Source: an uncultured bacterium (GTDB lineage Bacteria > Oederibacteriota > PGYV01 > CAWJRG01). Taken from it: DNA of 64,000 bases. The notes under the pieces are model-generated. The model saw nothing but the letters and a program-made list of their open reading frames with translations. It ran no database searches and was not told where the DNA came from. Positions 1 to 12,396 of the stretch are shown here, piece by piece. Numbering within the stretch: the stretch's first letter is position 1; each line of letters starts with the position of its first letter. The stretch is from positions 352,001 to 416,000 of the forward strand of contig CAWJRG010000010.1 of assembly GCA_963845185.1 (NCBI GenBank). Direction: 5' to 3'. Both the position numbers and the translations under genes were made by a program.

Positions 1-1264
1 TTTTTCTTTCTTTTACATCCTTAACACGATCCATATCTATGTCTCCCTCCCCGTCTGTAATGACCAGAAATTTCTTGAAATTATTGTTAAATGCGTGCTT
101 TAACAGTTCGTCAAAATCAGTCACGCTGTTTGTTATAAGAAGTCCGTTGTGCAACTCGCTGAGGCTTATCTCTTTCACTATTCCTGACAGCAGATAAATC
201 GGGTCATTTAAATAGGACTTTACCGAGTCCACAAGCCTGTAAATAAGCGGCAGGACATCTTCTACGGACCCTGACACATCTATGTACAGGTTCATGTTCC
301 TGTAAGTTGCGGCTGCTGCTTCCATGTCGTTCGGGAAGAAAAACGGGTATTTTTTCCTGTACAGGAGCATGAGCTCGCGCCTGCCCGCCGCGGGAATTAT
401 GCCCCTCTGCGATGTTATGACCCTGTCCATTATCCTGTTGTCTCCGTCGTCTTCCAGTGCGTGCCTTACTGCTTCTATAATAATGCGTGAGTTGTCCTTT
501 TCTATCTCTTCTTCTATTTCTATGAACTTCTTTTCAGCCAGCAAATATCCCCTTGAAAATCCGTGATACCCCAAAAGAACCAGTGTATCCACAAAAGTTG
601 ACAGGTATTGCCGATTTATGATTCGTTCAAGGCGCTCATATAGCATAGCCACTGAAACATCCTTAAACCACGCGTCTATGTACCATCTTGCAAGGCCGGG
701 TTTATCTAAAATCCATTTTTCATCCTTAAATTTCATTTTTTCTATTGCCTTCATTGCGTTAGCCTGTTTTTCTCCGTTATTGTAAATATCGGGTATGTCA
801 ATAAAATTAAAAATAGGGTTTAAAAGAAAATTCACGACCAGGCCTGTATCTTTATAAAAACTTTTTAAAAAATGCCAGCCTTCCTTTAAATAATCTTTTA
901 TTATTCCGGCGTTTATTTTTATGTCAAACACCAGGTTGAAATTATTTCTAAGAGAGTTCCTTTCTTCCCTGAGCAAATCCCCGTTTAATTTATGCATGAG
1001 CTCGTGCAGGAAAACAAAAATAAGCCAGTCCTTGTTTTCAATATTTTTCATGATGAAATCCTTATTAAAATACATTGTGTAATGCCCTGAATCCTCTTTT
1101 GGCATAGATATGCACGCGGTTTTTGTTGTGTTTTTATCTTCGGTTAAAACTATTTTCCAGTTGGCTTTTATCCAGTATATATTGTCAATAAGGAAATTGT
1201 CCTTTTTGCCTACTACAAAATCTTTTATGTAGCCTTCTATTTCGTCCACGTTTTTTATTTCCAT
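1..1264 (-). CDS. HExxH metallopeptidase-like + C-terminal vWA protein (DUF2201-like), truncated at window edge
   Basis: Not in the ORF track because it runs off the left edge. Manual translation from ATG at 1264 (AGGAG RBS) gives MEIKNVDEIEG..., with FLHELMH near 1000, then NLVFDIKIN, MIDAS-like YIDVSGS near 280 and VITDG near 60, all in one frame. Confidence 0.8.
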   Translation of the reverse strand, partial: MEIKNVDEIEGYIKDFVVGKKDNFLIDNIYWIKANWKIVLTEDKNTTKTACISMPKEDSGHYTMYFNKDFIMKNIENKDWLIFVFLHELMHKLNGDLLREERNSLRNNFNLVFDIKINAGIIKDYLKEGWHFLKSFYKDTGLVVNFLLNPIFNFIDIPDIYNNGEKQANAMKAIEKMKFKDEKWILDKPGLARWYIDAWFKDVSVAMLYERLERIINRQYLSTFVDTLVLLGYHGFSRGYLLAEKKFIEIEEEIEKDNSRIIIEAVRHALEDDGDNRIMDRVITSQRGIIPAAGRRELMLLYRKKYPFFFPNDMEAAAATYRNMNLYIDVSGSVEDVLPLIYRLVDSVKSYLNDPIYLLSGIVKEISLSELHNGLLITNSVTDFDELLKHAFNNNFKKFLVITDGEGDIDMDRVKDVKERK

Positions 1265-1307
1265 AACGGCTCCTTTCCTATAGGCTAATCCGCCGGCTTT
1301 AAAAAAA

Positions 1308-1430
1308 CCCCTTCCCCCTTGACGGGGGGAGGTTAGGATGAGGGTGACGTAGTAACATGCATTTCTTAAAGTTAATGCTGTTTTGCCGCTACTTCACCCT
1401 CACCTTTATCCTCTCCCGTCGAGGGAGAGG
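1308..1430. repeat. Inverted pair of CCCTCTCCC/GGGAGAGG-type REP-like palindromes
   Basis: cccttccccttgacggggggaggttaggatgagggtga ... tcaccctcacctttatcctctcccgtcgagggagagg; the same family recurs at 18647, 20197 and 30057. Confidence 0.8.
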
Positions 1431-1480
1431 AGATTTCCCTTTCCACATCCCACATACCACACCCGCACCCCGCATCGGCG

Positions 1481-2617
1481 TCACGCCGGCTGCATCAGGA
1501 GCAAGAACTCTTCCTTGTCGCCAAGCAGCTCAGGGTCCATATTAAACGGCGTATTGCCGGGTATGTATATGCCTGTCGCCATCCTTGACATTATGTGCTC
1601 AAAAATGCCTATGTCGTCTATCACCTTTGCGCTTTCAGGTATTTCAGCAGCCTTCTGAGACGGCTCGATGAAATACACCATGTTTGTTACTGTCTCTGGC
1701 GCAGTATTTTTCTTTGTTTCTTTCTTGTATTTCAGGTATTCCTGTTTTGTGGGCACGCGTAAAATTGCCGATACTTTTTTTGAACTGTCGGGCAAAAGGT
1801 CAATAAATGTGCCTGAAAAAAAATCAGCGGTTTTATCCATACTGCTCAATATGCCCGGGTTTAAGTCGTTGATGTCCTCATAGGTTTTGAGTTTTCCGTC
1901 AATCATGCTCACTATCACCCTTGACATTTTGTCTCTTCCTGAAGTTCCCGCGCCGAAATATATGTATTCGCTCCCCGGTATTTTATAGCCGCTTATTTCC
2001 CTGTATTTTTCCCTGACAAACACATACTGCTCCCCCCTGTCTGTGTTTTTCCTGAAAAGGTATATTTTCCCGTTTGTGCAGTACCTGCCGAAATTATTCC
2101 CGCGCTGTTCTCTTTCCGAATCTCTCATCCGGAAAAACATGATTTTCAGCCCATCGTCATATGGTATCTTTGCCGACAGCCTTTCATAAAGTATATTCCT
2201 GTCAACCTTTCCGTTGACGTTCCTGCAGTCTGTTATGATCTCCGTAATGTGAGTTTGCGTCTTTAAGTCCAGGTTTTTCACAAGAAATTTAACCAGGGAT
2301 TTTAATGAAGCGTAAGCTATGAGCCCGTCTATTTTTTTAACGCCTTTTTTGGTTTTAAGGGGTATTTCAATTTTAATATCAGTCCTTGAAAATTTCAGAC
2401 TTCCGCCCCTGTACCTGCGCAAATGGCTTAAATAAACATCATCCACGTCCTCTGTCATCGCCTGCATCGCCCTGTAAAGATACATGTTCCTGCCGTAAAC
2501 TTCGCCGCAGCTGAAATCCTTGCCTATTATTTTTTCCATGGGCATTTCAATTTTTGCTTTTTTATAGACTATTATGTCGCCCTTATCCAGTAATTTTTCA
2601 TATGCCTGTGTTTTCAT
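1481..2617 (-). CDS. Hypothetical protein between MoxR and vWA genes
   Basis: 378 aa ORF starting 2 nt after the MoxR stop; no motif recognised. Confidence 0.75.
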   Translation of the reverse strand: MKTQAYEKLLDKGDIIVYKKAKIEMPMEKIIGKDFSCGEVYGRNMYLYRAMQAMTEDVDDVYLSHLRRYRGGSLKFSRTDIKIEIPLKTKKGVKKIDGLIAYASLKSLVKFLVKNLDLKTQTHITEIITDCRNVNGKVDRNILYERLSAKIPYDDGLKIMFFRMRDSEREQRGNNFGRYCTNGKIYLFRKNTDRGEQYVFVREKYREISGYKIPGSEYIYFGAGTSGRDKMSRVIVSMIDGKLKTYEDINDLNPGILSSMDKTADFFSGTFIDLLPDSSKKVSAILRVPTKQEYLKYKKETKKNTAPETVTNMVYFIEPSQKAAEIPESAKVIDDIGIFEHIMSRMATGIYIPGNTPFNMDPELLGDKEEFLLLMQPA

Positions 2618-2618
2618 T

Positions 2619-4034
2619 TTACTCCTCCATTCCCGGGTAATTTTTGTAAGTTGACAGCGCTTTTGCCAGTTTCTCTATGTCTGTATCGTCCCTGTCAGGG
2701 TCGCGTAGTGTGTTAAAAACAACCTTAAAATCGTTTATGTCGCTTAATTCATCGTCTATGATCCCGCGTTTCACCATTTCACCGAAATGCTGGAGCCCCG
2801 AATAATGGAATTTTTTTCCCACGGACATATCAAACATGCTTCTGTATGTTTCAAACAGGCGCTCGGTTTCATTCATCTGGAATTTCAGTTCACCGGACGC
2901 TATTTTCCCGGCAAGGACGCGCAGTATTGCCATGTTTATGGGTTTCTCATCCAGGCAATTGCTGTTTTTTACCTTTTCAATTATTTTTGTGATGCCGGCT
3001 TTTATAAACGGGTAATTATTCTCCACAGTTTCCCGGGTTAGGTTTTCCGCGTCCTGCGGGTTTTTCAGGTCAAAGACCCTGTTTGCGCCGTTATCGTCTA
3101 TCAGGTCAAAAGCCATGTCGTGGATGTACTTTATGCGCATGTTGGTAAGCTCCACGTTTATCGCCTCAAAAGGCATGGAATATTTTACCGCCGTGAATAT
3201 CTCCTCCCGCATGTCCATGAGGTCAAAATTCTCCTGCTTTTCTTTTAGTATTGCCGTGGATATGTAAGCCGCAATGTTCCTCTTTATCATGTTTATTCGG
3301 CGGCCGTCCAGGTTGATGCCCTTGTTGTTGGCGAAGAACACGAATTTTATTATGTAGTCGTCCAGCCTGCTGTTGAGTTTTTTTGACACAAAGCCTATCC
3401 TGTCCCTGATTGCCTCTATGTACGCGAGGAAATCCTGCCTTTCTTTTTCGTCCATTTTCATCTCATTGCCCTTGTATATGGCAGCGCCGTCGTCCTCGTT
3501 TATGTTGTTTATTATTTTCCTGAGGTTGGCGTCCGTCATTTCGATTGCCTGCGGCACTTTTATGACAAAGGCAAACCTGCCGGCGAGCGCCTCGTCCAGC
3601 GGGTTCGCGCCCGCGTATGACGGCGGGTTCATGGCGGCGAATATGTGCCTGAGTTTTTCTGCTTTCAGGCCCATGACCTGCCTGCTCCTGACTATTTCCA
3701 GCCACTTGTTCTGCATCTCTGCCCTGGCTCTTGATATCTCGTCTATCAAAATGAATTCCTTGTCCCAGATGGATAGCTTTGTCGGCACGTACTCTATCTC
3801 GCCCTTTGATATGGTGTCCGGGTTTGGGAAGCCGATAAGGTCCTCAAACAGCGCCTTTGACGCGTCATAGGCAAAAAATTTCAGGCCCAGCGCCTCCGCC
3901 AGCTTCCTGCACAGCGTGGTCTTGGCAGTGCCGTGCGAGCCGATGAAAAGCACCGGGTCGCCGGTGGCGATACCTGCCATGATTATATCTTCTATTTTGT
4001 CCATTCCGTATATTCCCATTTTTTCCAGCCACAT
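2619..4034 (-). CDS. MoxR-family AAA+ ATPase
   Basis: Walker A GSHGTAKT, Walker B ILIDEISR, AAMNP sensor, LDEALAGRF arginine-finger motif. Confidence 0.9.
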   Translation of the reverse strand: MWLEKMGIYGMDKIEDIIMAGIATGDPVLFIGSHGTAKTTLCRKLAEALGLKFFAYDASKALFEDLIGFPNPDTISKGEIEYVPTKLSIWDKEFILIDEISRARAEMQNKWLEIVRSRQVMGLKAEKLRHIFAAMNPPSYAGANPLDEALAGRFAFVIKVPQAIEMTDANLRKIINNINEDDGAAIYKGNEMKMDEKERQDFLAYIEAIRDRIGFVSKKLNSRLDDYIIKFVFFANNKGINLDGRRINMIKRNIAAYISTAILKEKQENFDLMDMREEIFTAVKYSMPFEAINVELTNMRIKYIHDMAFDLIDDNGANRVFDLKNPQDAENLTRETVENNYPFIKAGITKIIEKVKNSNCLDEKPINMAILRVLAGKIASGELKFQMNETERLFETYRSMFDMSVGKKFHYSGLQHFGEMVKRGIIDDELSDINDFKVVFNTLRDPDRDDTDIEKLAKALSTYKNYPGMEE

Positions 4035-4043
4035 AAGTGCCTC

Positions 4044-4137
4044 CTTAAGATCGTTTGTTTTGTCAAGCCGTCAACAGGCGCAGGCAAAACATTACGAGAT
4101 TAAGTACCCGCTCAAGTCCCAAAGGGACAAGCGGTAC
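4044..4137 (-). ncRNA. Candidate structured 5'-UTR RNA, copy 1 (before MoxR)
   Basis: Sense strand ACCGCTTGTCCC-ttt-GGGACTTGAGCGGGT, then hairpin TCGT-aa-TGTTTTGCC-tgc-GCC-tgttgac-GGC-tt-GACAAAACA-a-ACGA, ending at the AAGGAGG RBS. Confidence 0.6.
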
Positions 4138-4146
4138 TTGATATCA

Positions 4147-4262
4147 TCGTTTACTTTGCCAAGCCGGCCTTGCTCCCCATTAACAAGGGAGTTAAATATC
4201 CCCGTGGGATGTTTAACGGGCAGAAGTCATCTTGTTATTCCAAAATATGCCTTTTCTACCCA
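4147..4262 (-). repeat. Partial second copy of the leader RNA element, long variant with a nested palindrome
   Basis: tcgtttactttgccaagccg, gttaaatatccccgtgggatgtttaacggg, aagtcatct and ctaccca are shared with the 19922-20087 copy. Confidence 0.5.
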
Positions 4263-4376
4263 AGAAAGGGGGTTTGCTTTGTCTTTCGTAGAGCCAACCC
4301 TAATGGCTATCTCTTTTTGAGACGCCCATTAGGGGTATCTCTACAAGAACAATTTTTTGCGATAGGTCTGAGACCT

Positions 4377-4559
4377 TTACATTTTGTTTTTTTGTAATTT
4401 TTTCTTTCTCACCGGGATTACTTGGTATGCGATGAGATTTTTATATTCTTTGTCGTTACCGAATATGTTTTTACAGATTTCCCGCCTTTGTTCCTCTGTG
4501 ACTTCCACAAATTTTTTCTGTGGCTTTCGTTTTTCTTTATCTTTCATTTTTTGCCTCAT
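4377..4559 (-). CDS. Small basic hypothetical protein, first gene after the sigma54 promoter
   Basis: 60 aa ORF with an AAGGAGG RBS about 7 nt upstream. Confidence 0.55.
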   Translation of the reverse strand: MRQKMKDKEKRKPQKKFVEVTEEQRREICKNIFGNDKEYKNLIAYQVIPVRKKKLQKNKM

Positions 4560-4636
4560 AGCACGCCTCCTTTTGCATTCGATATTCAGTATTTAGAATG
4601 CCAAATTCCAAATCCTGAATTACTGAATACATATAG

Positions 4637-4652
4637 AGCAAGGCTTATGCCA
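4637..4652 (-). promoter_or_regulatory. sigma54 (-24/-12) promoter
   Basis: Minus strand TGGCATAAGCCTTGCT = GG-N10-GC, close to consensus. Confidence 0.8.
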
Positions 4653-4702
4653 TAAAAACGGAATAAAGATAAAGGATTTTATAGAATTGGGTAAAAGGAA
4701 GC

Positions 4703-4715
4703 GTCAAAAATTGAC
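4703..4715. promoter_or_regulatory. Putative bEBP upstream activating sequence
   Basis: Palindrome GTCA-AAAAT-TGAC, 52 bp upstream of the -24 GG; the same motif occurs at 10575 and 10593. Confidence 0.6.
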
Positions 4716-4728
4716 AGAAATATTATAT

Positions 4729-5388
4729 TTATACTAGAGTATTTAAATCTATTAAATCCTCAGGCATTATGATAGAAACAACTCTAAATTTAAGTGATCT
4801 TTTTGCTGATCCTTTTCTCCATCTGTTATTAATTTCAGTATTAGTATCTATTTCAAAATCAATTTTATGATTTTTTATACTGTTATTTAATTTTTTACTA
4901 CAAAATAACAACAATATATTTTCAATTTCCTTTTTTTTAGTGTTTTCAAATGTATCAATTTTATCCATAATATTTTTAAAATTGTTATAAAGAATAGATT
5001 TTGATTCTTTTTTTTCTTCACTAGCGAACCACTTAATAAAATCATCAACTTTTTTCCCGATTATTTTGTAATGGTCTTGATTTCTCTTTTTGTTTAATAT
5101 GTAACTTTGTAAAAACAAATGTCTTAGAACTTGACGTGCTTTTACAACTATTCTATCTTTTTTTACTTCTTGCGATTTTTCCCACTTGCTTTCAATTAAA
5201 TATATTTTACTATTAGTTTTAATTATTGCATCGAATTCCCCAATCGCAGGTGAAGTGCCACGCCCAAAACTTGGTCTATAAAAAATACACTTAATTGATT
5301 CATTATTTACTAATTCCTTGACTTTGTCATCTTGCTTTAAAAACCATAATGTCAATGCATCTTCCCCATAACCAATAATTGGTAACAT
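4729..5388 (-). CDS. Putative PD-(D/E)XK nuclease-like protein
   Basis: GEFDAII...IYLIESKW fits D...ExK spacing; AT-rich gene. Confidence 0.55.
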   Translation of the reverse strand: MLPIIGYGEDALTLWFLKQDDKVKELVNNESIKCIFYRPSFGRGTSPAIGEFDAIIKTNSKIYLIESKWEKSQEVKKDRIVVKARQVLRHLFLQSYILNKKRNQDHYKIIGKKVDDFIKWFASEEKKESKSILYNNFKNIMDKIDTFENTKKKEIENILLLFCSKKLNNSIKNHKIDFEIDTNTEINNRWRKGSAKRSLKFRVVSIIMPEDLIDLNTLV

Positions 5389-5430
5389 AAAATACCTCCT
5401 TTAGAATTTACAAATTATTTAAACACTATA

Positions 5431-6213
5431 TTAACAGGCGCGAGAAGCATTTGTTTTTCCTGCTATATTTTGCATCCGTTGTCCATGTTTTGGCATTGCA
5501 AATTTTGATTCTATATTCAGATGATCGCTTTTAACAATTTCAAGGACTTCATTCCAAAATCTTAAGCGATCTTCTTTTACATATACAAATGCAGGTACTA
5601 TTTTTTTTCGAATTACCGGCCTTTCAAAAATTTTAGCCGAATAACTACAAGGTATATAACTATATGGTATTTTACTTTTATCCATTTGACCAAAATACAA
5701 CCTGAATTCTGTTTTATTATCAATAATCCTTCTTATAGTTATTTCAAAATATTCTTTTGGTACATCTCTGCTTTTCTCCTTCAATTTAATTATTAATTCT
5801 TTCTCATTTTTATAATTTATAAAATCATCTACTACAAAAACAGTATCTAAAACAAATTTTCTTTTAATATTCGAACCAAAATATATTATTGAATCTTTCC
5901 CCAAATTTCTAAGAATTTTGCATCGTGGTTGCCTACAAACAGTATATAAAAAAATCCCACCAAACACAAACGGATCTGTATTCTGGAAAGCAGGCGGCAT
6001 GATAAAAACCGGTCTGTGTATTTGTGTATTTTTATCTTTTATACTAGGAGGTTCCCACTCGCCCCAAAAATAGATTTTTTGTTCATTTTCAAGAATTGCT
6101 TCGAGAAATTTCCTGTTATGTTTTTTATTATTCCATTCCACATATCCTGTTTCATCAGAAACAGATTCATCTTTTCCCGGATGCATAAAAAATAAAGATT
6201 TAATTTTTCCCAT
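5431..6213 (-). CDS. Hypothetical protein, weakly reminiscent of nucleotide-modification-associated (Nmad2-like) domains
   Basis: 260 aa, overlaps the upstream stop; motifs FWGEWEPPS and NTDPFVFG..FLYTVCRQ. The family call is tentative. Confidence 0.6.
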   Translation of the reverse strand: MGKIKSLFFMHPGKDESVSDETGYVEWNNKKHNRKFLEAILENEQKIYFWGEWEPPSIKDKNTQIHRPVFIMPPAFQNTDPFVFGGIFLYTVCRQPRCKILRNLGKDSIIYFGSNIKRKFVLDTVFVVDDFINYKNEKELIIKLKEKSRDVPKEYFEITIRRIIDNKTEFRLYFGQMDKSKIPYSYIPCSYSAKIFERPVIRKKIVPAFVYVKEDRLRFWNEVLEIVKSDHLNIESKFAMPKHGQRMQNIAGKTNASRAC

Positions 6214-6967
6214 GTATAATCGCCTTTCCTATCCCCACTTTATCTAGATTGCTAACCGTTCCAAAAGGCATATTTGCTGCCTTCCCCCAATGAATATTTG
6301 GAAATTTACCTTCTCCGATTTCTATCACTGCCTTTTTAACATAAAAAGGATTATCCCTTTCAATTGTATAGTAGTTCTCCCATTTTTTATTAAATTTAAA
6401 TTTGATTTTTTGAAGATATCTTTCAGCCATTGATATTAAAATAATATCAGGTTTTAAACAACTTACAAGTTCGTGCCATAAACCTATTCCTTCTGCCTCA
6501 AACAAATTTTTATCATTATCATTCAACCTGCTCCATGTCGGGTCTGTTGCGATTGGTGTCATAATATCTGTATGCAAAGCTGTATTTGCTTTCCTTGCGT
6601 AGTAGCTGCAATCCATGCCATTTAAGATTGGCTCATATGAATTAAACCATAATTTATAGGGGCTATAACTAAAATATTTGTTTAAAGTCATTAAATAATC
6701 ATCAACAGGTTTTTGGTTCTGTAGAATTGCATCTTTTATCTTTTCCCCGCCTTCAAATCTTAAAAATGCGTCTTCTTCCGGGAACTCTATCTTTGACGGA
6801 TTAAGACCAACAGTAATAACTTTAGTCATTGAAGCAAAATACGTCCTATAATCGCCAAAATATAAAATTGGAATAGATTTTTTAACTACGTTGCCGTTAT
6901 CGTAGTTTTTGATAAAAACATCAAAAGCTTTTTCAACTACTGAAAGCAATTCTTCTTGCATTTTCAT
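6200..6967 (-). CDS. Uracil-DNA glycosylase superfamily-like protein
   Basis: VITVGLNPS (UDG motif-1-like) and LKPDIILIS; AT-rich. Confidence 0.55.
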   Translation of the reverse strand: MKMQEELLSVVEKAFDVFIKNYDNGNVVKKSIPILYFGDYRTYFASMTKVITVGLNPSKIEFPEEDAFLRFEGGEKIKDAILQNQKPVDDYLMTLNKYFSYSPYKLWFNSYEPILNGMDCSYYARKANTALHTDIMTPIATDPTWSRLNDNDKNLFEAEGIGLWHELVSCLKPDIILISMAERYLQKIKFKFNKKWENYYTIERDNPFYVKKAVIEIGEGKFPNIHWGKAANMPFGTVSNLDKVGIGKAIIHGKN

Positions 6968-6977
6968 GTGCCCGCCT

Positions 6978-8345
6978 CTACAATTTAATGCATTTCCCTT
7001 TCTCCGGCAGTATTACTTTCTCGCAGAAGTTCTTGAAAGCCTCTGCGTTTTCGGTATGTACGGGTATGACAGTATCCGCGTTCACGCCGTCTATCATCTT
7101 TCTCACGCCTTCCTCGTCGGCGTGGCCCGAGCAGTGTATCTGCGCGAGTTTCACGCCAAAGTGCCCCAGCCAGTTTTCCAGGCATTCCCTGTATTCCTCG
7201 TTATCCTCGCCTTCGATATAGTGCTCTGACATGGAGTAAATGAAAGTCCCGCTTTTGGGCTGTATGTCCACCATCTGCGAGAGCTCTGAAGCTGTCACGA
7301 ACATTACCACGTCGCCTGTGTTCTTTTTCACCCACTTATAATCCACGCATTCCTCAAAATAAGGTTTCTGGTAATTATATATCCTTTTTTCATCATCAGG
7401 TATGTCGCTGTTTTTGTTGAATATCTTCATTTTGGTATTGCCGATTGTCTTTGGCAGGTCGTCAATGAGCTCCCTTGCGTTATCTATTGTATATGCAAAT
7501 CCCGGATTTACAACGAGCACTTTGCCTGCGCGTGCAGTCGCATTATACAGGCTCCTGACCCTATCCACGTTCCTGAAAGAAAATTGCGCGAACGTTATGC
7601 CGTCTGTCTTTTTTATGGTGTCGCAAAGCGCGTCTTCCACGTCGCATTCCCGCATTTTCTTTTTAAATATGGTGTCCCTGTTGTTCTTTACCCTGGTTCC
7701 TTCGGTTATCAGCACTTTTACCTTTGCTTTTGCCGCTGCTTTGATAAAATCTTCTGTCATTTCAGGCCTGAAACCGTGCAGACGAAAATCGCCTGTGTAC
7801 GCAATATTTCCTTCTGGCGTTTCAATGATAAACCCATATGCGCCTGGTATGGAGTGGTCCATATGCACAGGCGTGACAGTAATGTCCCTTATTTTAAATT
7901 TCTTCCCTGTTTTCATTTCCACAATATTTTCACCGGCTTCTGTCTTGAAACTCGGGTAAATGGTATTAAACGCCTCGTTTAGTTTATTCGCGCCGTGTCC
8001 GAGATAAACAGGTATGTCAGGGTCTACATAAGCCACGTCTCCTATATGGTCGCTGTGTATGTGGGATATAAGAATGGCGTCAATGGTGGGCTTTTTATAT
8101 TTCATATCCGTGTAATATAAAGCGTCCCGTGAATACACGCCCTGTATTTCCGGCATCATTCCAAATTCAAAATAGTCCCTAAGCCCGAGTTTTTCCCTGG
8201 GCTCCAGATAATCAAAACCGCTGTAAATTCCTGCGCCTCTGTCAAAAGGTATCCCGAAATCTAAAAACACTCTTGCCTTTCCCGCCTCCAGCAGTATCTT
8301 GTTCCCGCCTATCTCGCCCGCTCCTCCGTATGCTGTTATCTTCAT
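6978..8345 (-). CDS. MBL-fold beta-CASP (RNase J-like) nuclease
   Basis: GGAGEIGGN, LDFG, HIHSDH, HSIPG, YTGDFR, EGT, HCSGHA and PVHTE motifs. Confidence 0.88.
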   Translation of the reverse strand: MKITAYGGAGEIGGNKILLEAGKARVFLDFGIPFDRGAGIYSGFDYLEPREKLGLRDYFEFGMMPEIQGVYSRDALYYTDMKYKKPTIDAILISHIHSDHIGDVAYVDPDIPVYLGHGANKLNEAFNTIYPSFKTEAGENIVEMKTGKKFKIRDITVTPVHMDHSIPGAYGFIIETPEGNIAYTGDFRLHGFRPEMTEDFIKAAAKAKVKVLITEGTRVKNNRDTIFKKKMRECDVEDALCDTIKKTDGITFAQFSFRNVDRVRSLYNATARAGKVLVVNPGFAYTIDNARELIDDLPKTIGNTKMKIFNKNSDIPDDEKRIYNYQKPYFEECVDYKWVKKNTGDVVMFVTASELSQMVDIQPKSGTFIYSMSEHYIEGEDNEEYRECLENWLGHFGVKLAQIHCSGHADEEGVRKMIDGVNADTVIPVHTENAEAFKNFCEKVILPEKGKCIKL

Positions 8346-8896
8346 TATTTTCCGCCTTTCTTTTCATTTTTCCATATAGATTCAAAGTTTCTTTTTAAAT
8401 CTGAATATAGTGGTTTAAAAACTTCAAATTGATTCATTACATGCGTTTGCGGGCTTAAATGGGTTACATAATATATGGATTTTACCTTTTTAAGTTTACC
8501 TGAAAATATATAATCTTTTATGGCCTTCTGCGTTTCTTTGCCAAAGACAACTATCGAATCATAATTATTAAACCTAATATCTGTTCTTATCTTTTTTTTA
8601 TGATAGTCATTAAGTGTTTTAAAAATATCCGCACACATAACCTCCCCTGCATTTTTATTTTTCAAAATATGTAATACATTAATAAATCTTTCACCAATAG
8701 GGTTAACTTTATTGTTTTTCAAATAGGTTTTTATATTATTTAAATCATTATTGATTTTTTTAAAGCCAAAAACGAACTGCCCTTTTTTCCCTCCTATACC
8801 AGGCGATTGAAACAGCAATAGCCATTTTTTCGCACCACCAAAATTCAGTTTTAAATCCTTATCGGGACGATTCATATTATTAAAATGTTCGGTCAC
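8345..8896 (-). CDS. Divergent uracil-DNA glycosylase-like protein
   Basis: LLLFQSPG, IVVFGKETQ and C-terminal THLSPQ resemble UDG-fold motifs; AT-rich; translationally coupled on both sides. Confidence 0.5.
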   Translation of the reverse strand: MTEHFNNMNRPDKDLKLNFGGAKKWLLLFQSPGIGGKKGQFVFGFKKINNDLNNIKTYLKNNKVNPIGERFINVLHILKNKNAGEVMCADIFKTLNDYHKKKIRTDIRFNNYDSIVVFGKETQKAIKDYIFSGKLKKVKSIYYVTHLSPQTHVMNQFEVFKPLYSDLKRNFESIWKNEKKGGK

Positions 8897-8897
8897 A

Positions 8898-10469
8898 TTA
8901 TTCCTCCTTTATTCCGTAGTGTTTCATTTTTGTTTTCAGCGTATTCAGCGCTATGCCGAGGCCTTTAGCCGCCTTTGACTTGTTCATGGCGTTTAAACGC
9001 AGCGCTTTTTTTATCGCCCATTTTTCCGCGTCTGCTATTGTCGTGACCGTGTTATCGTTAATCAAACCGCCTGATGGCACTGTTTCCTCATCGCCGGCTG
9101 CCATTTCTTTTAAAAGCTTTTTTAAATCCTCTCCTCTTGCCTTGAATATTATGGTGCGCATCAGGAATTTCTGCAACTGCCTTATGTTTCCGGGCCAATC
9201 GTATGTTTTCAGCATTTCAAATTCTTTTTTTGTCAAAATTACCCTCTCATACCCCTGTTCCCTGAACAATCTGTAAAGAATAACGTTTGCGAGCGCTTCC
9301 AGGTCTTCTTTCCTTTCTTTCAGCGACGGTATGTAAAGCTCCACCCCTGATATCCTGTAATAAAGGTCAGCCCTGAACTTGCCTTCTTTTATCATTTCCT
9401 TAATGTTCGTGTTTGTGGCAGCCAGTATCCTGACATTTGCCTTTTTGGCAGTAGTTGAGCCGAGCGGCACAAACTGAAAATCCTCAAGGAACCTCAAAAA
9501 CTTTGCCTGCACTTCCATGGGCATCTCGGTCATCTCGTCCAGGAAAACCGTGCCTCCGTCAGCTTCCTCAACCACTCCTTTTTTGTCCCTATCCGCGCCT
9601 GTAAACGCGCCTTTCGCATGGCCGAAAAGCATGGACTCCATGAGGTTTGCGGGTATTCCGGCGCAGTTAATGGGCATAAAAGGCTTTTCACGCCTTTCGC
9701 TCGCGTCGTGTATCATGCGCGCGGCAATTTCCTTGCCTGTGCCTGTCTCGCCGTATATAAGAACCGGCGCGTCCTTGTACTTGCCGACTCTTTCTATGTT
9801 TTTCCTCAGCACAGATACTGCAGTTCCTGAGCCGCTCAAAAGGTAGTTGTTCATGTCGTAATTTTTCGCCGTCTCTATGTCGGCCGGTGCTACTGTGTTG
9901 TTTGCAAGCTTTAAAATAAGCTCCCTGAGCATGTCGTCCTCGCCCACGTGCCATTTCCAGTACATGTTTATGGAATACTGCGAGTACCCGGCAATGTCGC
10001 ATATCTCCTCGGGCTTTTTGCATGGTTTTTTAAGCTCCTGCGCCTCGAAAAGGTCATAAAGGTCCTTTAACCGGCCGTAATCCGCCTCGGGAGGCTTCTC
10101 AATGTCATGTATGTAATCAATAAGTTTCTTGCCTTCCTTTGCCTCTTCGGACGTGGTGAGCATTTTATAAAAAAACTTTGCATCCGGCCCTTTTATCTCG
10201 AACCTGTCCTCTATGGTATATATCTTTATCTTTTTTTTGGCGTCAAGCATGGCCTCAAGCGCGGCTTTTATCTCCTGCTTGTAGTCATCCTTGAACCTCA
10301 CGCCTATTATGTAAAGCTTTTCATATCCCGTGTCTTTCAGCCCCGTCAGGTCGGCGTGGAAATTATCCGCGGATGTGAACAAAATATCCGCTTCCTTTAC
10401 CGCTTTCAGCAGCAGCGCCGTTGCCGTGTAATATGTGTCCTTGTGCGCTGTAAGTATTGCTGTCTTCAA
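8898..10469 (-). CDS. sigma54-dependent enhancer-binding activator (AAA+, Fis-type HTH) with uncharacterised N-terminal domain
   Basis: GETGTGKE, INCA, intact GAFTGA, FLDEM, FRADLYYR, WPGNIRQL, C-terminal KSKAAKGLGI HTH; TTG start with AGGAGG RBS. Confidence 0.93.
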   Translation of the reverse strand: MKTAILTAHKDTYYTATALLLKAVKEADILFTSADNFHADLTGLKDTGYEKLYIIGVRFKDDYKQEIKAALEAMLDAKKKIKIYTIEDRFEIKGPDAKFFYKMLTTSEEAKEGKKLIDYIHDIEKPPEADYGRLKDLYDLFEAQELKKPCKKPEEICDIAGYSQYSINMYWKWHVGEDDMLRELILKLANNTVAPADIETAKNYDMNNYLLSGSGTAVSVLRKNIERVGKYKDAPVLIYGETGTGKEIAARMIHDASERREKPFMPINCAGIPANLMESMLFGHAKGAFTGADRDKKGVVEEADGGTVFLDEMTEMPMEVQAKFLRFLEDFQFVPLGSTTAKKANVRILAATNTNIKEMIKEGKFRADLYYRISGVELYIPSLKERKEDLEALANVILYRLFREQGYERVILTKKEFEMLKTYDWPGNIRQLQKFLMRTIIFKARGEDLKKLLKEMAAGDEETVPSGGLINDNTVTTIADAEKWAIKKALRLNAMNKSKAAKGLGIALNTLKTKMKHYGIKEE

Positions 10470-10506
10470 ACCTTAGCCTCCTTTGGCCTGTCCGGCTTAT
10501 ATACAG

Positions 10507-10522
10507 AGCAACTACTATGCCG
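10507..10522 (-). promoter_or_regulatory. sigma54 (-24/-12) promoter upstream of the bEBP gene
   Basis: Minus strand CGGCATAGTAGTTGCT = GG-N10-GC, followed by CTGTAT (CTATAT at the 4637 copy). Confidence 0.7.
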
Positions 10523-10550
10523 GATAGGTTATTGAAATTATCTGGATATA

Positions 10551-10579
10551 ATTATACCAGAAGAATGCACAATTGTCAA
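10551..10579 (-). promoter_or_regulatory. sigma70 consensus promoter for the bEBP operon
   Basis: TTGACA-17 nt-TATAAT on the minus strand. Confidence 0.75.
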
Positions 10580-10605
10580 ATTTTGATGATTTGTCAGAAA
10601 TTGAT
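10575..10605. promoter_or_regulatory. Two tandem putative bEBP binding sites
   Basis: GTCA-AATTT-TGAT (10575-10587) and GTCA-GAAAT-TGAT (10593-10605); the first overlaps the sigma70 -35. Confidence 0.6.
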
Positions 10606-11573: not shown

Positions 11574-12396
11574 TTAAGCCCTGAAAAAATATACTATTAA
11601 AAAGATTCCGAATACTGCCCTGTAAACCGCAAAAGCAAAATAGGAATGTTTTTTAACAAAACCCAGGAGGAATTTAACCGCCCAGTAGCCCGAAATTGCT
11701 GCCGCCAGAAAGCCCAAAGCCATCAAGGATTTTCCTTCATGGCCCGGCGTATGCAGTATATGCTTGAACTTGAATAAAAAAGCTCCGGCAATTACAGGTA
11801 TTGACAGCAAAAACGAAAACTCAGCCGCATCCTCCCTTTTAAATCCAAAAAAAAGGCCGGTCATTATTGTTATCCCCGAGCGCGACACTCCCGGAATCAG
11901 TGCGAGGGACCTGGGCGCAGCCGATAATAATGGAATCAAGTATTTTCATTCCGCCGATTTCTTTTTGTTTTTTCCCTGCCCTGTCGGCAAGATAAAGTAT
12001 TATGCCGAATATCAAAAGCACAGCTCCAATGACCGCCGGGTGTTCGCGTACTTTGTCTTCTACCCTGTCGCCTGCCAGCACTCCTGCCAGCCCGGCAGGA
12101 ACAGCAGCGATTAATACATAAACCGCAATCCAAAAATCCCCGGCTTCCCTTGTCTTCGCGCTTACAAGGCCTGTAAAAAATGCCCTGCAGAGCGATATTA
12201 TCTTTTCCCGGAAAAAAATCACAAGCGCCAGAAGTGTCCCGCCGTGAAGCGCCACGTCAAAAGTCAGGGAATTCAAGAGCGGCGAGTTCATCTTGAAAAT
12301 TGCCGGGATGACGTCAAGATGCGCGGATGAGCTCACCGGAAGGAATTCGGTCAGTCCCTGGACAATTCCCAGTATTAACGACCATATGTAATCCAC
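11574..12396 (-). pseudogene. uppP: Undecaprenyl-diphosphate phosphatase, split by a +1 frameshift near 11908
   Basis: N-half has GLTEFLPVSSSAH; C-half in another frame has LALIPGVSRSG and AAEFSFLL; one extra base in GCCCAGGTCCCTCGCA. Confidence 0.85.

Follow-up and report, generated by a model that had tools for sequence, protein, structure and literature searches.

Layout of the locus

The locus described here lies at the left end of a 64,000-nucleotide (nt) stretch, the window, from the genome of an uncultured bacterium of the phylum Oederibacteriota (GenBank assembly GCA_963845185.1, contig CAWJRG010000010.1, positions 352,001 to 416,000). An earlier, sequence-only reading of this DNA had described co-directional and mostly coupled genes in two blocks, each with a -24/-12 promoter and with the activator inside the locus, and this description proved accurate. 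All genes of the locus in the window are on the minus strand and mostly coupled, in the order A-B-C-D-E-F, then an intergenic promoter, a small open reading frame (sORF) and a leader, then G-H-I, with the activator A as the first gene. The same reading took the ten genes that it counted for a single system; the locus is, however, composite, with a core made up of A, C, G, H and I and an AT-rich cargo, and not one conserved ten-gene system. The genes are listed below, with protein lengths in amino acids (aa) and the guanine-plus-cytosine (GC) content of each gene.

8898-10469 (-): A, sigma-54 activator of the bacterial enhancer-binding protein (bEBP) type, 523 aa; GC 0.469; core
8345-8896 (-): B, orphan, 183 aa; GC 0.284; cargo
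6978-8345 (-): C, RNase J-like beta-CASP metallo-beta-lactamase (MBL) nuclease, 455 aa; GC 0.456; core
6200-6967 (-): D, Brig3-like DNA glycosylase of the uracil-DNA glycosylase (UDG) superfamily, 255 aa; GC 0.324; cargo
5431-6213 (-): E, BapA-like protein of ASCH/PUA fold, 260 aa; GC 0.298; cargo
4729-5388 (-): F, probable PD-(D/E)XK nuclease, 219 aa; GC 0.255; cargo
4377-4559 (-): Lys-rich sORF, predicted, 60 aa, with a strong Shine-Dalgarno site; GC 0.322; cargo
2619-4034 (-): G, MoxR-type AAA+ ATPase with a long C-terminal extension, 471 aa; GC 0.477; core
1481-2617 (-): H, conserved protein of no known family, 378 aa; GC 0.423; core
1-1264 (-), cut by the window edge: I, HExxH metallopeptidase-like and vWA domains, 453 aa in full; GC 0.383; core
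Beyond the left end of the window, between I and pheS: J, AT-rich gene, 266 aa; GC 0.266; cargo

The two classes of genes are sharply split in their composition, with a per-gene GC of 0.383-0.477 in the core and of 0.255-0.324 in the cargo, against 0.423 for the whole genome. Spacing within the blocks is tight (A/B 1 nt, B/C 1-nt overlap, C/D 10 nt, D/E 14-nt overlap, E/F 42 nt, G/H 1 nt) and is broken only where dispersed repeats have been inserted, as in the 216-nt gap between H and I. The last 32 residues of I fall to the left of the window and were obtained from the fetched flank, in which J comes after I and precedes a small open reading frame (ORF), then a terminator and then pheS. At the right-hand side, the next genes past the island are an unrelated MBL gene and a split uppP. 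This undecaprenyl-diphosphatase gene (BacA/uppP, window 11574-12396, minus strand) is present as two overlapping ORFs that correspond to positions 2-157 and 157-257 of the Pfam BacA model, the result of a frameshift or of an assembly error.

Conservation of the core in related genomes

The genes were surveyed in 24 genomes of the order, this one included, in 75 genomes from the rest of the phylum and, for some families, in the 98 other genomes of the phylum taken together. Orthologues of A, recognised by the N-terminal domain of the bEBP, are present in 12 of the 24 genomes of the order and those of C (51-70% identity) in 11, again counting this genome; H was found in nine of the 24 and in none of the 75 genomes elsewhere in the phylum. 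All three genes occur together in 7 of the 24 genomes, and pairwise they are distributed as follows.

A with C: both 10, A only 2, C only 1, neither 11
C with H: both 8, C only 3, H only 1, neither 12
A with H: both 7, A only 5, H only 2, neither 10

Gene order is preserved as well. The beta-CASP gene directly follows the bEBP gene in seven relatives (G002, G004, G008, G003, G021, G017 and G020), and the order MoxR-H-I is kept in six. In G003 the bEBP and beta-CASP genes are followed by two small ORFs and then by MoxR-H, and in G001 MoxR-H-I is followed by beta-CASP. The co-occurrence of the locus genes elsewhere, as the sequence-only reading had expected it, is thus real for the bEBP, the beta-CASP protein and the MoxR/H/vWA genes and fails for the full set of ten. 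In the core loci of 12 relatives from the order B, D, E, F and J are never present, which together with the GC split agrees with the earlier view of the AT-rich genes as exchangeable cargo.

The core loci of the relatives have variable genes of their own, among them ankyrin proteins, NlpC/P60 proteins, a second beta-CASP protein, an AddAB-like helicase-nuclease, AAA_5/DUF2201 pairs and a transposase. A second pair of AAA_5 and DUF2201_N/DUF2201 genes lies near the core in G001 (L103, contig C67, 1966-7035), there together with an ankyrin protein and a protein of the 23S-rRNA-IVP family, and in G004 (L119, contig C2, 16816-19114). NlpC/P60 proteins stand beside the core in three genomes (G001, G002 and G004). 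In G022 (L124, contig C41, 3865-9938) the place of the beta-CASP gene after the bEBP orthologue is taken by genes for an AddB-like PD-(D/E)XK protein of 973 aa and for a UvrD/AddA-like helicase of 1071 aa.

Promoters, enhancer-like sites and leader repeats

Both blocks are preceded by a predicted sigma-54 promoter with enhancer-like palindromes upstream of it. The regulatory and repeat features, all on the minus strand, are the following.

10575-10604 (-): two enhancer-like palindromes, TCAATTTCTGAC and TCAAAATTTGAC, upstream of the bEBP operon
10551-10579 (-): predicted consensus sigma-70 promoter, TTGACA-17-TATAAT, TG-extended, 12/12 matches, overlapping the proximal palindrome
10507-10522 (-): sigma-54 -24/-12 element CGGCATAGTAGTTGCT, 52 nt before the bEBP start
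4703-4714 (-): enhancer-like palindrome TGTCAATTTTTGACG, upstream of the MoxR block
4637-4652 (-): sigma-54 -24/-12 element TGGCATAAGCCTTGCT, upstream of the MoxR block
4035-4376 (-): structured 342-nt leader made of dispersed genomic repeats, upstream of MoxR
1265-1480 (-): 216-nt insertion of dispersed hairpin repeats, one of them terminator-like, between H and I

A TCAA-N4-TGAC palindrome is located 62-82 nt upstream of each of the two sigma-54 elements. In the 3.5-Mb genome these patterns match 62 palindromes and 23 sigma-54-like sites, and only two palindrome-plus-promoter pairs, both at this locus, where about 0.035 would be expected by chance in the whole genome; as the patterns were derived from these same two sites, the count shows that there are no further sites and is a measure of exclusivity, not an independent discovery. 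The related genomes provide what this count does not. Upstream of the bEBP orthologues a sigma-54 element is found in 10 of 12 cases, 49-77 nt before the start, and the palindrome, in the form TGTCA-N5-TGACA / TCAA-N4-TTGAC, in 11 of 12, with both present in nine. The corresponding numbers upstream of the MoxR orthologues are 6/7, 4/7 and 3/7. Random 336-nt windows of the genome contain the single motifs in 8.3% and 5.2% of cases and both in 0.48%. The conservation of the sites in relatives is independent support for the predicted shared regulation of the two blocks. With an intact activator, rpoN in the genome (3.3e-52) and two enhancer-plus-sigma-54 promoters, the sigma-54 regulatory design that the sequence-only reading had proposed was corroborated. 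In addition, the sigma-70 promoter that overlaps the bEBP-proximal palindrome suggests a basal expression of the bEBP with positive feedback on top of it.

The leader of MoxR folds strongly (z-score -6.2), and for this reason a structured RNA was considered. It was rejected as a Y-RNA-like element or riboswitch, as the leader has no Rfam match and contains no tRNA, and it turned out to be a patchwork of dispersed repeats that includes a copy of a 100-nt repeat unit. BLAST against the genome returned 72 further matches for this leader and 41 for the insertion between H and I; in orthologous loci H and I are closer than here, overlapping by 3 nt at one extreme and separated by 64 nt at the other. 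Small, strongly folding repeat families are dispersed over the whole genome. The 100-nt unit is one of them, with nested stems and the core GTACCGCTTGTCC...GGACTNGAGCGGGTAC, and it is present at nine exact-pattern sites and in a tandem array of 6.6 copies (G000:C9:~916500-917150; L005 1384-2039). Repeat copies occur in the 5' leaders of both MoxR and pheS (L002:14250-14620) and between H and I. Two unrelated Lys-rich ORFs, one of 57 aa upstream of pheS (L002:14600-14771, minus strand) and the one of 60 aa upstream of MoxR (window 4377-4559, minus strand), each stand behind a strong promoter and ahead of a repeat-containing leader. The 60-aa ORF matches no family and is specific to the version of the locus in this genome.

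Proteins of the core

The sequence-only reading had named the bEBP, the beta-CASP nuclease, the MoxR ATPase and the peptidase-vWA protein, and family matches and motifs uphold all four assignments. A consists of an N-terminal domain (residues 1-210), an AAA+ domain (215-460) with the GAFTGA motif, intact by alignment, and a helix-turn-helix (HTH) domain (478-518), and it matches Sigma54_activat (PF00158, 8.3e-64), HTH_8 (1.1e-6) and AAA_lid_14 in Pfam. It is a bEBP by its AAA+ domain with GAFTGA, its C-terminal HTH, the -24/-12 promoter and the presence of rpoN. Its N-terminal domain has no match in Pfam or among PDB profiles, and a word-seeded search with it found three proteins at E <= 0.001. 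The AAA-HTH part scores highest against the PADLOC model RtcR_PspF2 (2.8e-101), and RtcR is second among the NCBIfam matches (4.3e-82). However, the RtcR models of both libraries align to A only from about model position 170-188 onward, and since RtcR-type models match only past position ~172, no CARF domain was detected in A. A resembles the activators of RtcR-rtcBA and other CARF-bEBP regulons in that its N-terminal domain, presumably ligand-sensing, takes the place of a receiver and that it lies beside genes for nucleic-acid enzymes which it probably controls. It differs from them in the N-terminal domain, which the CARF part of the models does not match, in the lack of RtcB and RtcA, and in its predicted autoregulation from a sigma-54 promoter of its own.

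C has the MBL and RMMBL domains of the RNase J / beta-CASP nucleases (Lactamase_B_2 4e-16, RMMBL 2.9e-7) and the HxHxDH motif, read in the sequence, and the RNase J family TIGR00649 is its best family (2.3e-33). Its scores are, however, far below the cut-offs for RNase J itself, 115.4 bits against 400 for TIGR00649 and 88.5 against 820 for RnjA. RNase J is roughly 555 aa long, and C, with 455 aa, appears to be without the C-terminal domain of that enzyme. By these family scores C can be classed as a beta-CASP MBL protein below the RNase J equivalog cut-off. Its nearest relative from outside the lineage, 38% identical, is encoded in a metagenome-assembled genome (MAG) of Bathyarchaeota, among unrelated neighbours, with only C in common.

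G matches AAA_5 (7e-12), AAA_3 (9e-10) and bpMoxR (1.3e-7; 31.3 bits against a cut-off of 27), and its orthologues are 51-57% identical to it. H is always situated between the MoxR gene and that of the vWA protein. It has no match in Pfam, PHROG, NCBIfam, PADLOC or PDB profiles, and six of six orthologues likewise have none in Pfam. No relatives of H and I were found among viral contigs, or of H among plasmids. A portal-protein look-alike that was considered for H scored 0.79 in the protein atlas, below the useful range, and was dismissed. All 8 sequences compared share with I the residues H87, E88, H91, D329, S331, S333, T382 and D404, and the MIDAS motif is complete. I itself has no Pfam match to DUF2201_N or DUF2201; an orthologue (L104) matches DUF2201_N weakly (7.7e-4; 19.6 bits against a cut-off of 23.2), and a paralogue linked to it by BLAST (L103:1966-3171) matches it clearly (2.5e-13; 50.7 bits). 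A literature search on DUF2201 found nothing on its function. The predicted complex of I with H scored 0.00, against a mark of 0.32. PDB-sequence profile searches with E, D, B, the N-terminal domain of the bEBP, H, I and F gave nothing significant.

The trio of G, H and I is closest to the MoxR-vWA ternary conflict systems (Kaur, Burroughs, Iyer, Aravind 2020, eLife, PMC7159879) and to the CoxD-CoxE / AAA_5-DUF2201 pairs from which these derive. As described in that paper's relevant passages, the common elements are a MoxR ATPase beside a MIDAS-bearing vWA protein, a conserved third protein in between, a peptidase-type domain fused to the vWA domain, and variable neighbours. There are also differences from what those passages describe. 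H matches no VMAP, iSTAND, FtsH or beta-propeller domain in Pfam, the HExxH domain of I, which is similar to DUF2201_N, precedes the vWA domain, and the trio is confined to one order of a small phylum. It is furthermore under predicted sigma-54 control and linked to a beta-CASP gene; in the searched text of the paper 'sigma-54' has 0 occurrences, and beta-CASP is not in its matched passages.

The D-E pair

The best-defined part of the cargo corresponds to a pair of proteins that is already in print. Brig3 is a glycosylase of 5-hydroxymethylcytosine (5hmC) and BapA an ASCH-like hydrolase of glucosyl-5hmC, encoded by overlapping genes (Mejia-Pitta et al., bioRxiv 10.64898/2026.02.25.707755); according to the same preprint, BapA has ZmASCH as its closest structure and D101 as an essential residue, and the pair is known from one soil cosmid, with its own promoter, in a CBASS/Ssp island. 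A literature search on Brig3 and BapA returned this single preprint on the subject.

The structure model of D (predicted local distance difference test score, pLDDT, 94.5) aligns with the family-4 UDG 4zby (Z 11.7, root-mean-square deviation 3.4, 170 residues aligned), and the top 50 rows of the structure search are all UDG, UdgX, SMUG1 or TDG proteins; by its predicted structure, D has the fold of the UDG superfamily. Its Brig3-like character is evident at the level of single residues, for D is identical to Brig3 at 18 of the 18 positions that the preprint's available text names (F31, N50, P51, S52, E55, Y97, W100, F101, H125, D127, R140, A174, E175, R197, N225, G229, T230 and N233), with an offset of +6 up to residue 55 and of +7 from residue 97, a comparison that rests on the residue numbers quoted in that text. 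The roles given there for these residues are those of an aromatic pocket, catalysis, recognition of the hydroxymethyl group, DNA contacts and an intercalating wedge (bioRxiv 10.64898/2026.02.25.707755); the Glu that reads the hydroxymethyl group, E55 in Brig3, is E61 in D, and the Asn of the wedge, N225, is N232. Among 24 sequences of the D family, nine of the ten residues of the pocket and of catalysis do not vary at all, and at the remaining one (Y104) 23 sequences have Tyr. PF03167, the canonical UDG family, is found in only 2 of the 24 genomes of the order and is absent from this genome, whereas 13 of 14 control genomes match it; D is missed by that Pfam model.

For E the model (pLDDT 84.8) has ZmASCH (5guq/5y6b) as its top match in Foldseek (E 0.013, probability 0.85) and VIA-wide (a moderate Z of 6.1), and the 20 rows that follow show PUA-like folds throughout, including YTH, EVE and McrB-N; the predicted structure is an ASCH-like beta-barrel closest to ZmASCH, as the preprint states for BapA. 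In the E family the invariant Asp of a QNTDPFVF motif falls within residues 96-105 in 28 of 34 aligned members, near position 100, where BapA has D101, a correspondence compared by position only; in E itself it is D80. A lead towards Nmad3 (atlas rank 13, score 0.91, the family on 26% of cluster members) was discarded, with no such Pfam match in the E alignment and nothing relevant in the literature search.

As in the published pair, D and E are two overlapping genes (14 nt) with the glycosylase first, in AT-rich, acquired-looking DNA. They differ from it, as far as the preprint's sections describe it, in their setting, which is an operon driven by sigma-54 and a bEBP and not a promoter of their own in a CBASS/Ssp island, and in E, which has 260 aa compared with about 290 and lacks one near-invariant His. 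Because all 18 named residues are identical, D-E is filed as a Brig3-BapA-type module, and by this sequence comparison it appears to have been described already. The sequence-only reading had itself named two outcomes as speaking against it, a match to a known system and genes that do not co-occur elsewhere, and both were found.

The preprint's sections contain no distribution survey, and the family proves widespread. E has 561 homologous clusters, all unnamed, one of them with an N-terminal TIR fusion (P0046), and a metagenome scan with the E family recovered 489 stretches. In the best 80 of these, D adjoins E in 37 and is fused to it in two; 37 is a lower bound because many contigs are short. 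None of the same 80 loci contains A, B, C, F, G, H, I or J, which marks D-E as a stand-alone pair, and no other neighbour family is present around E in more than five of them. The fused ORFs have the two proteins in both orders, D-E and E-D (L062:282-2024, L018:477-2387), and at several loci a shorter D-like gene is found downstream of E rather than upstream.

Other cargo genes

An exhaustive search of 1.84 billion protein representatives yielded one relative of B, with 56% identity. B has no family, Pfam, PDB or profile match, and hhalign against the D family gave a probability of 2.3%. Two UDG-like proteins had been proposed at this locus; D is one by its predicted fold, and for B the support consists of motifs read by eye alone (FQSPG and HLSPQ). 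B separates the bEBP and beta-CASP genes in this genome only, while the two are directly adjacent in seven relatives. F is a probable PD-(D/E)XK nuclease, as suggested by the residues D53...E66-x-K68, invariant in three of three aligned sequences, and by weak Pfam matches of one family member each to NERD (0.0044), DUF234 (0.11) and UPF0102 (0.21), which I take to belong to the PD-(D/E)XK clan. Clear relatives of F are found in 2 of the 98 other genomes of the phylum, in addition to one borderline match with internal stops. J has no match in the libraries and no relative in the 98 other genomes. A scan with PADLOC-DB 2.0.0, a library of 2023 that predates Brig3-BapA, gave generic AAA matches for A and G and none for B, C, D, E, F, H and I.

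Interpretation

The reading that I consider probable is that of a lineage-specific, self-activating sigma-54 regulon, the core, to which AT-rich cargo, including the Brig3-BapA-type pair, has been added. The core regulon would have been inherited vertically within the order. Its bEBP, with a lineage-restricted N-terminal sensor, would bind the enhancer of the TGTCA-N5-TGACA type and, upon a signal sensed by that domain, possibly infection or nucleic-acid stress, activate both sigma-54 promoters and thereby amplify itself. The first promoter would drive the bEBP gene and beta-CASP, giving positive feedback on top of the basal sigma-70 promoter, and the second the genes of the MoxR ATPase, H and the HExxH/vWA protein. 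The ancestral output would hence be a beta-CASP nuclease and the trio of MoxR, H and HExxH-vWA, which may work as a chaperone-gated unit. Into both operons of this genome the foreign genes B, D-E, F, the small ORF and J would have been inserted, and by this insertion they would be co-transcribed with the core, so that the same signal would raise the Brig3-BapA-type pair, F, B and J. Substrates are putative for D, E, C and F; as predicted for the pair, D would excise 5hmC from phage DNA, and E would strip the glucose from glucosyl-5hmC so that D can act.

Apart from the derivation of the motif patterns and the quoted Brig3 residue numbers mentioned above, several observations weigh against this reading. 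The co-occurrence counts are descriptive, since the genomes are kin and many are fragmented MAGs, in which 'absent' may mean not assembled, and for the same reason of kinship the Fisher values of the three tables (3e-4, 2e-3 and 0.045) overstate independence. Five bEBP-positive genomes have no H, two H-positive genomes have no bEBP match, and two bEBP-positive genomes have no beta-CASP. By sequence, neither H nor the N-terminal domain of the bEBP has a recognisable fold. The transcription units and their induction are deduced from the sequence alone, and the terminator-like repeat between H and I could uncouple I and J from the rest of their operon. E is atypical for its family, with some 12-20 residues deleted and Ser in place of the near-invariant His of HPGxEH. 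Finally, nothing ties the core itself to defence; what PADLOC matches in the bEBP is no more than its generic AAA-HTH part.

Alternatively, the whole locus could be one dedicated, co-evolved defence or repair system of ten genes, the enzymes of which act jointly on modified nucleic acid. The co-directional, tightly spaced genes behind two co-regulated promoters would fit such a system, as would the several products that are nucleic-acid enzymes. However, the fact that no core locus fetched from a relative contains B, D, E, F or J, the 80 of 80 loci (the best of 489) in which D-E stands without other genes of the island, the single relative of B, the lack of any relative of J in the 98 other genomes of the phylum and the sharp GC split make this very improbable, and the non-co-occurrence has already largely refuted it. 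It is also quite improbable that the two blocks are unrelated neighbours whose shared motifs are generic sigma-54 features of the lineage. The bEBP/beta-CASP genes and the MoxR trio are indeed on different contigs in several relatives, and the motif patterns are loose, as their single frequencies in random windows indicate. The two motifs combined are, however, far rarer in such windows than upstream of the bEBP (9/12) and MoxR (3/7) orthologues, only these two sites are paired despite the 23 sigma-54-like sites of the genome, and the blocks are adjacent in G000 and G003, with beta-CASP beside the trio in G001 and C and H distributed over the genomes as 8/3/1/12.

For the core itself two functions have to be weighed. 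It could be a housekeeping stress response like that of Rtc, in which damaged RNA or stalled ribosomes are the signal on which the bEBP turns on a nuclease and a MoxR/vWA remodeller for the quality control of RNA or ribonucleoprotein, the defence genes having landed in a permissive, non-essential operon. This is rather unlikely. In its favour, MoxR/vWA pairs are chaperone-like remodellers, C has its best family match in RNase J, which acts on RNA, models of the RtcR/PspF type give the top PADLOC score for the AAA-HTH part of the bEBP, and the core is inherited in one order with a host-like GC. However, a patchy distribution with A, C and H together in only 7 of 24 genomes is unusual for housekeeping genes, the neighbours in relatives are variable and conflict-flavoured, and the RtcR-type models detect no CARF domain. 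The other function is immunity. The core with its new-sensor bEBP may be a so far undescribed, infection-inducible immune regulon that detects a signal derived from phage or from damage, amplifies itself, and deploys a nuclease together with a MoxR-vWA ternary system of a novel type, while its operons would serve as docking sites for acquired defence genes such as Brig3-BapA and the PD-(D/E)XK nuclease; I put this forward tentatively, as a possibility and not as an expectation. The patchy distribution points more towards immunity, as do the variable and conflict-flavoured neighbours, and the likeness of C to RNase J and of the AAA-HTH part of the bEBP to RtcR points more towards a stress response. 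Returning to the regulon with acquired cargo, the locus is most likely an inducible stress or defence regulon with captured defence genes, in which the role of the core is deduced.

The best-defined cargo is already in print; the core, with the new sensor domain of its bEBP and its trio, is the part worth following. Whatever the role of the core, the Brig3-BapA pair belongs to a large and widespread family that includes fused and TIR-fused forms, the named pocket residues of the glycosylase are conserved throughout that family, and H and the trio of MoxR, H and HExxH-vWA constitute a MoxR-vWA system in which the third component is of an undescribed kind. If the core is controlled by an alarm signal, it would exemplify an immunity that depends on sigma-54, is induced at the level of transcription and uses a new sensor domain, and it would show how foreign defence genes gain inducible expression by insertion into an existing regulon.

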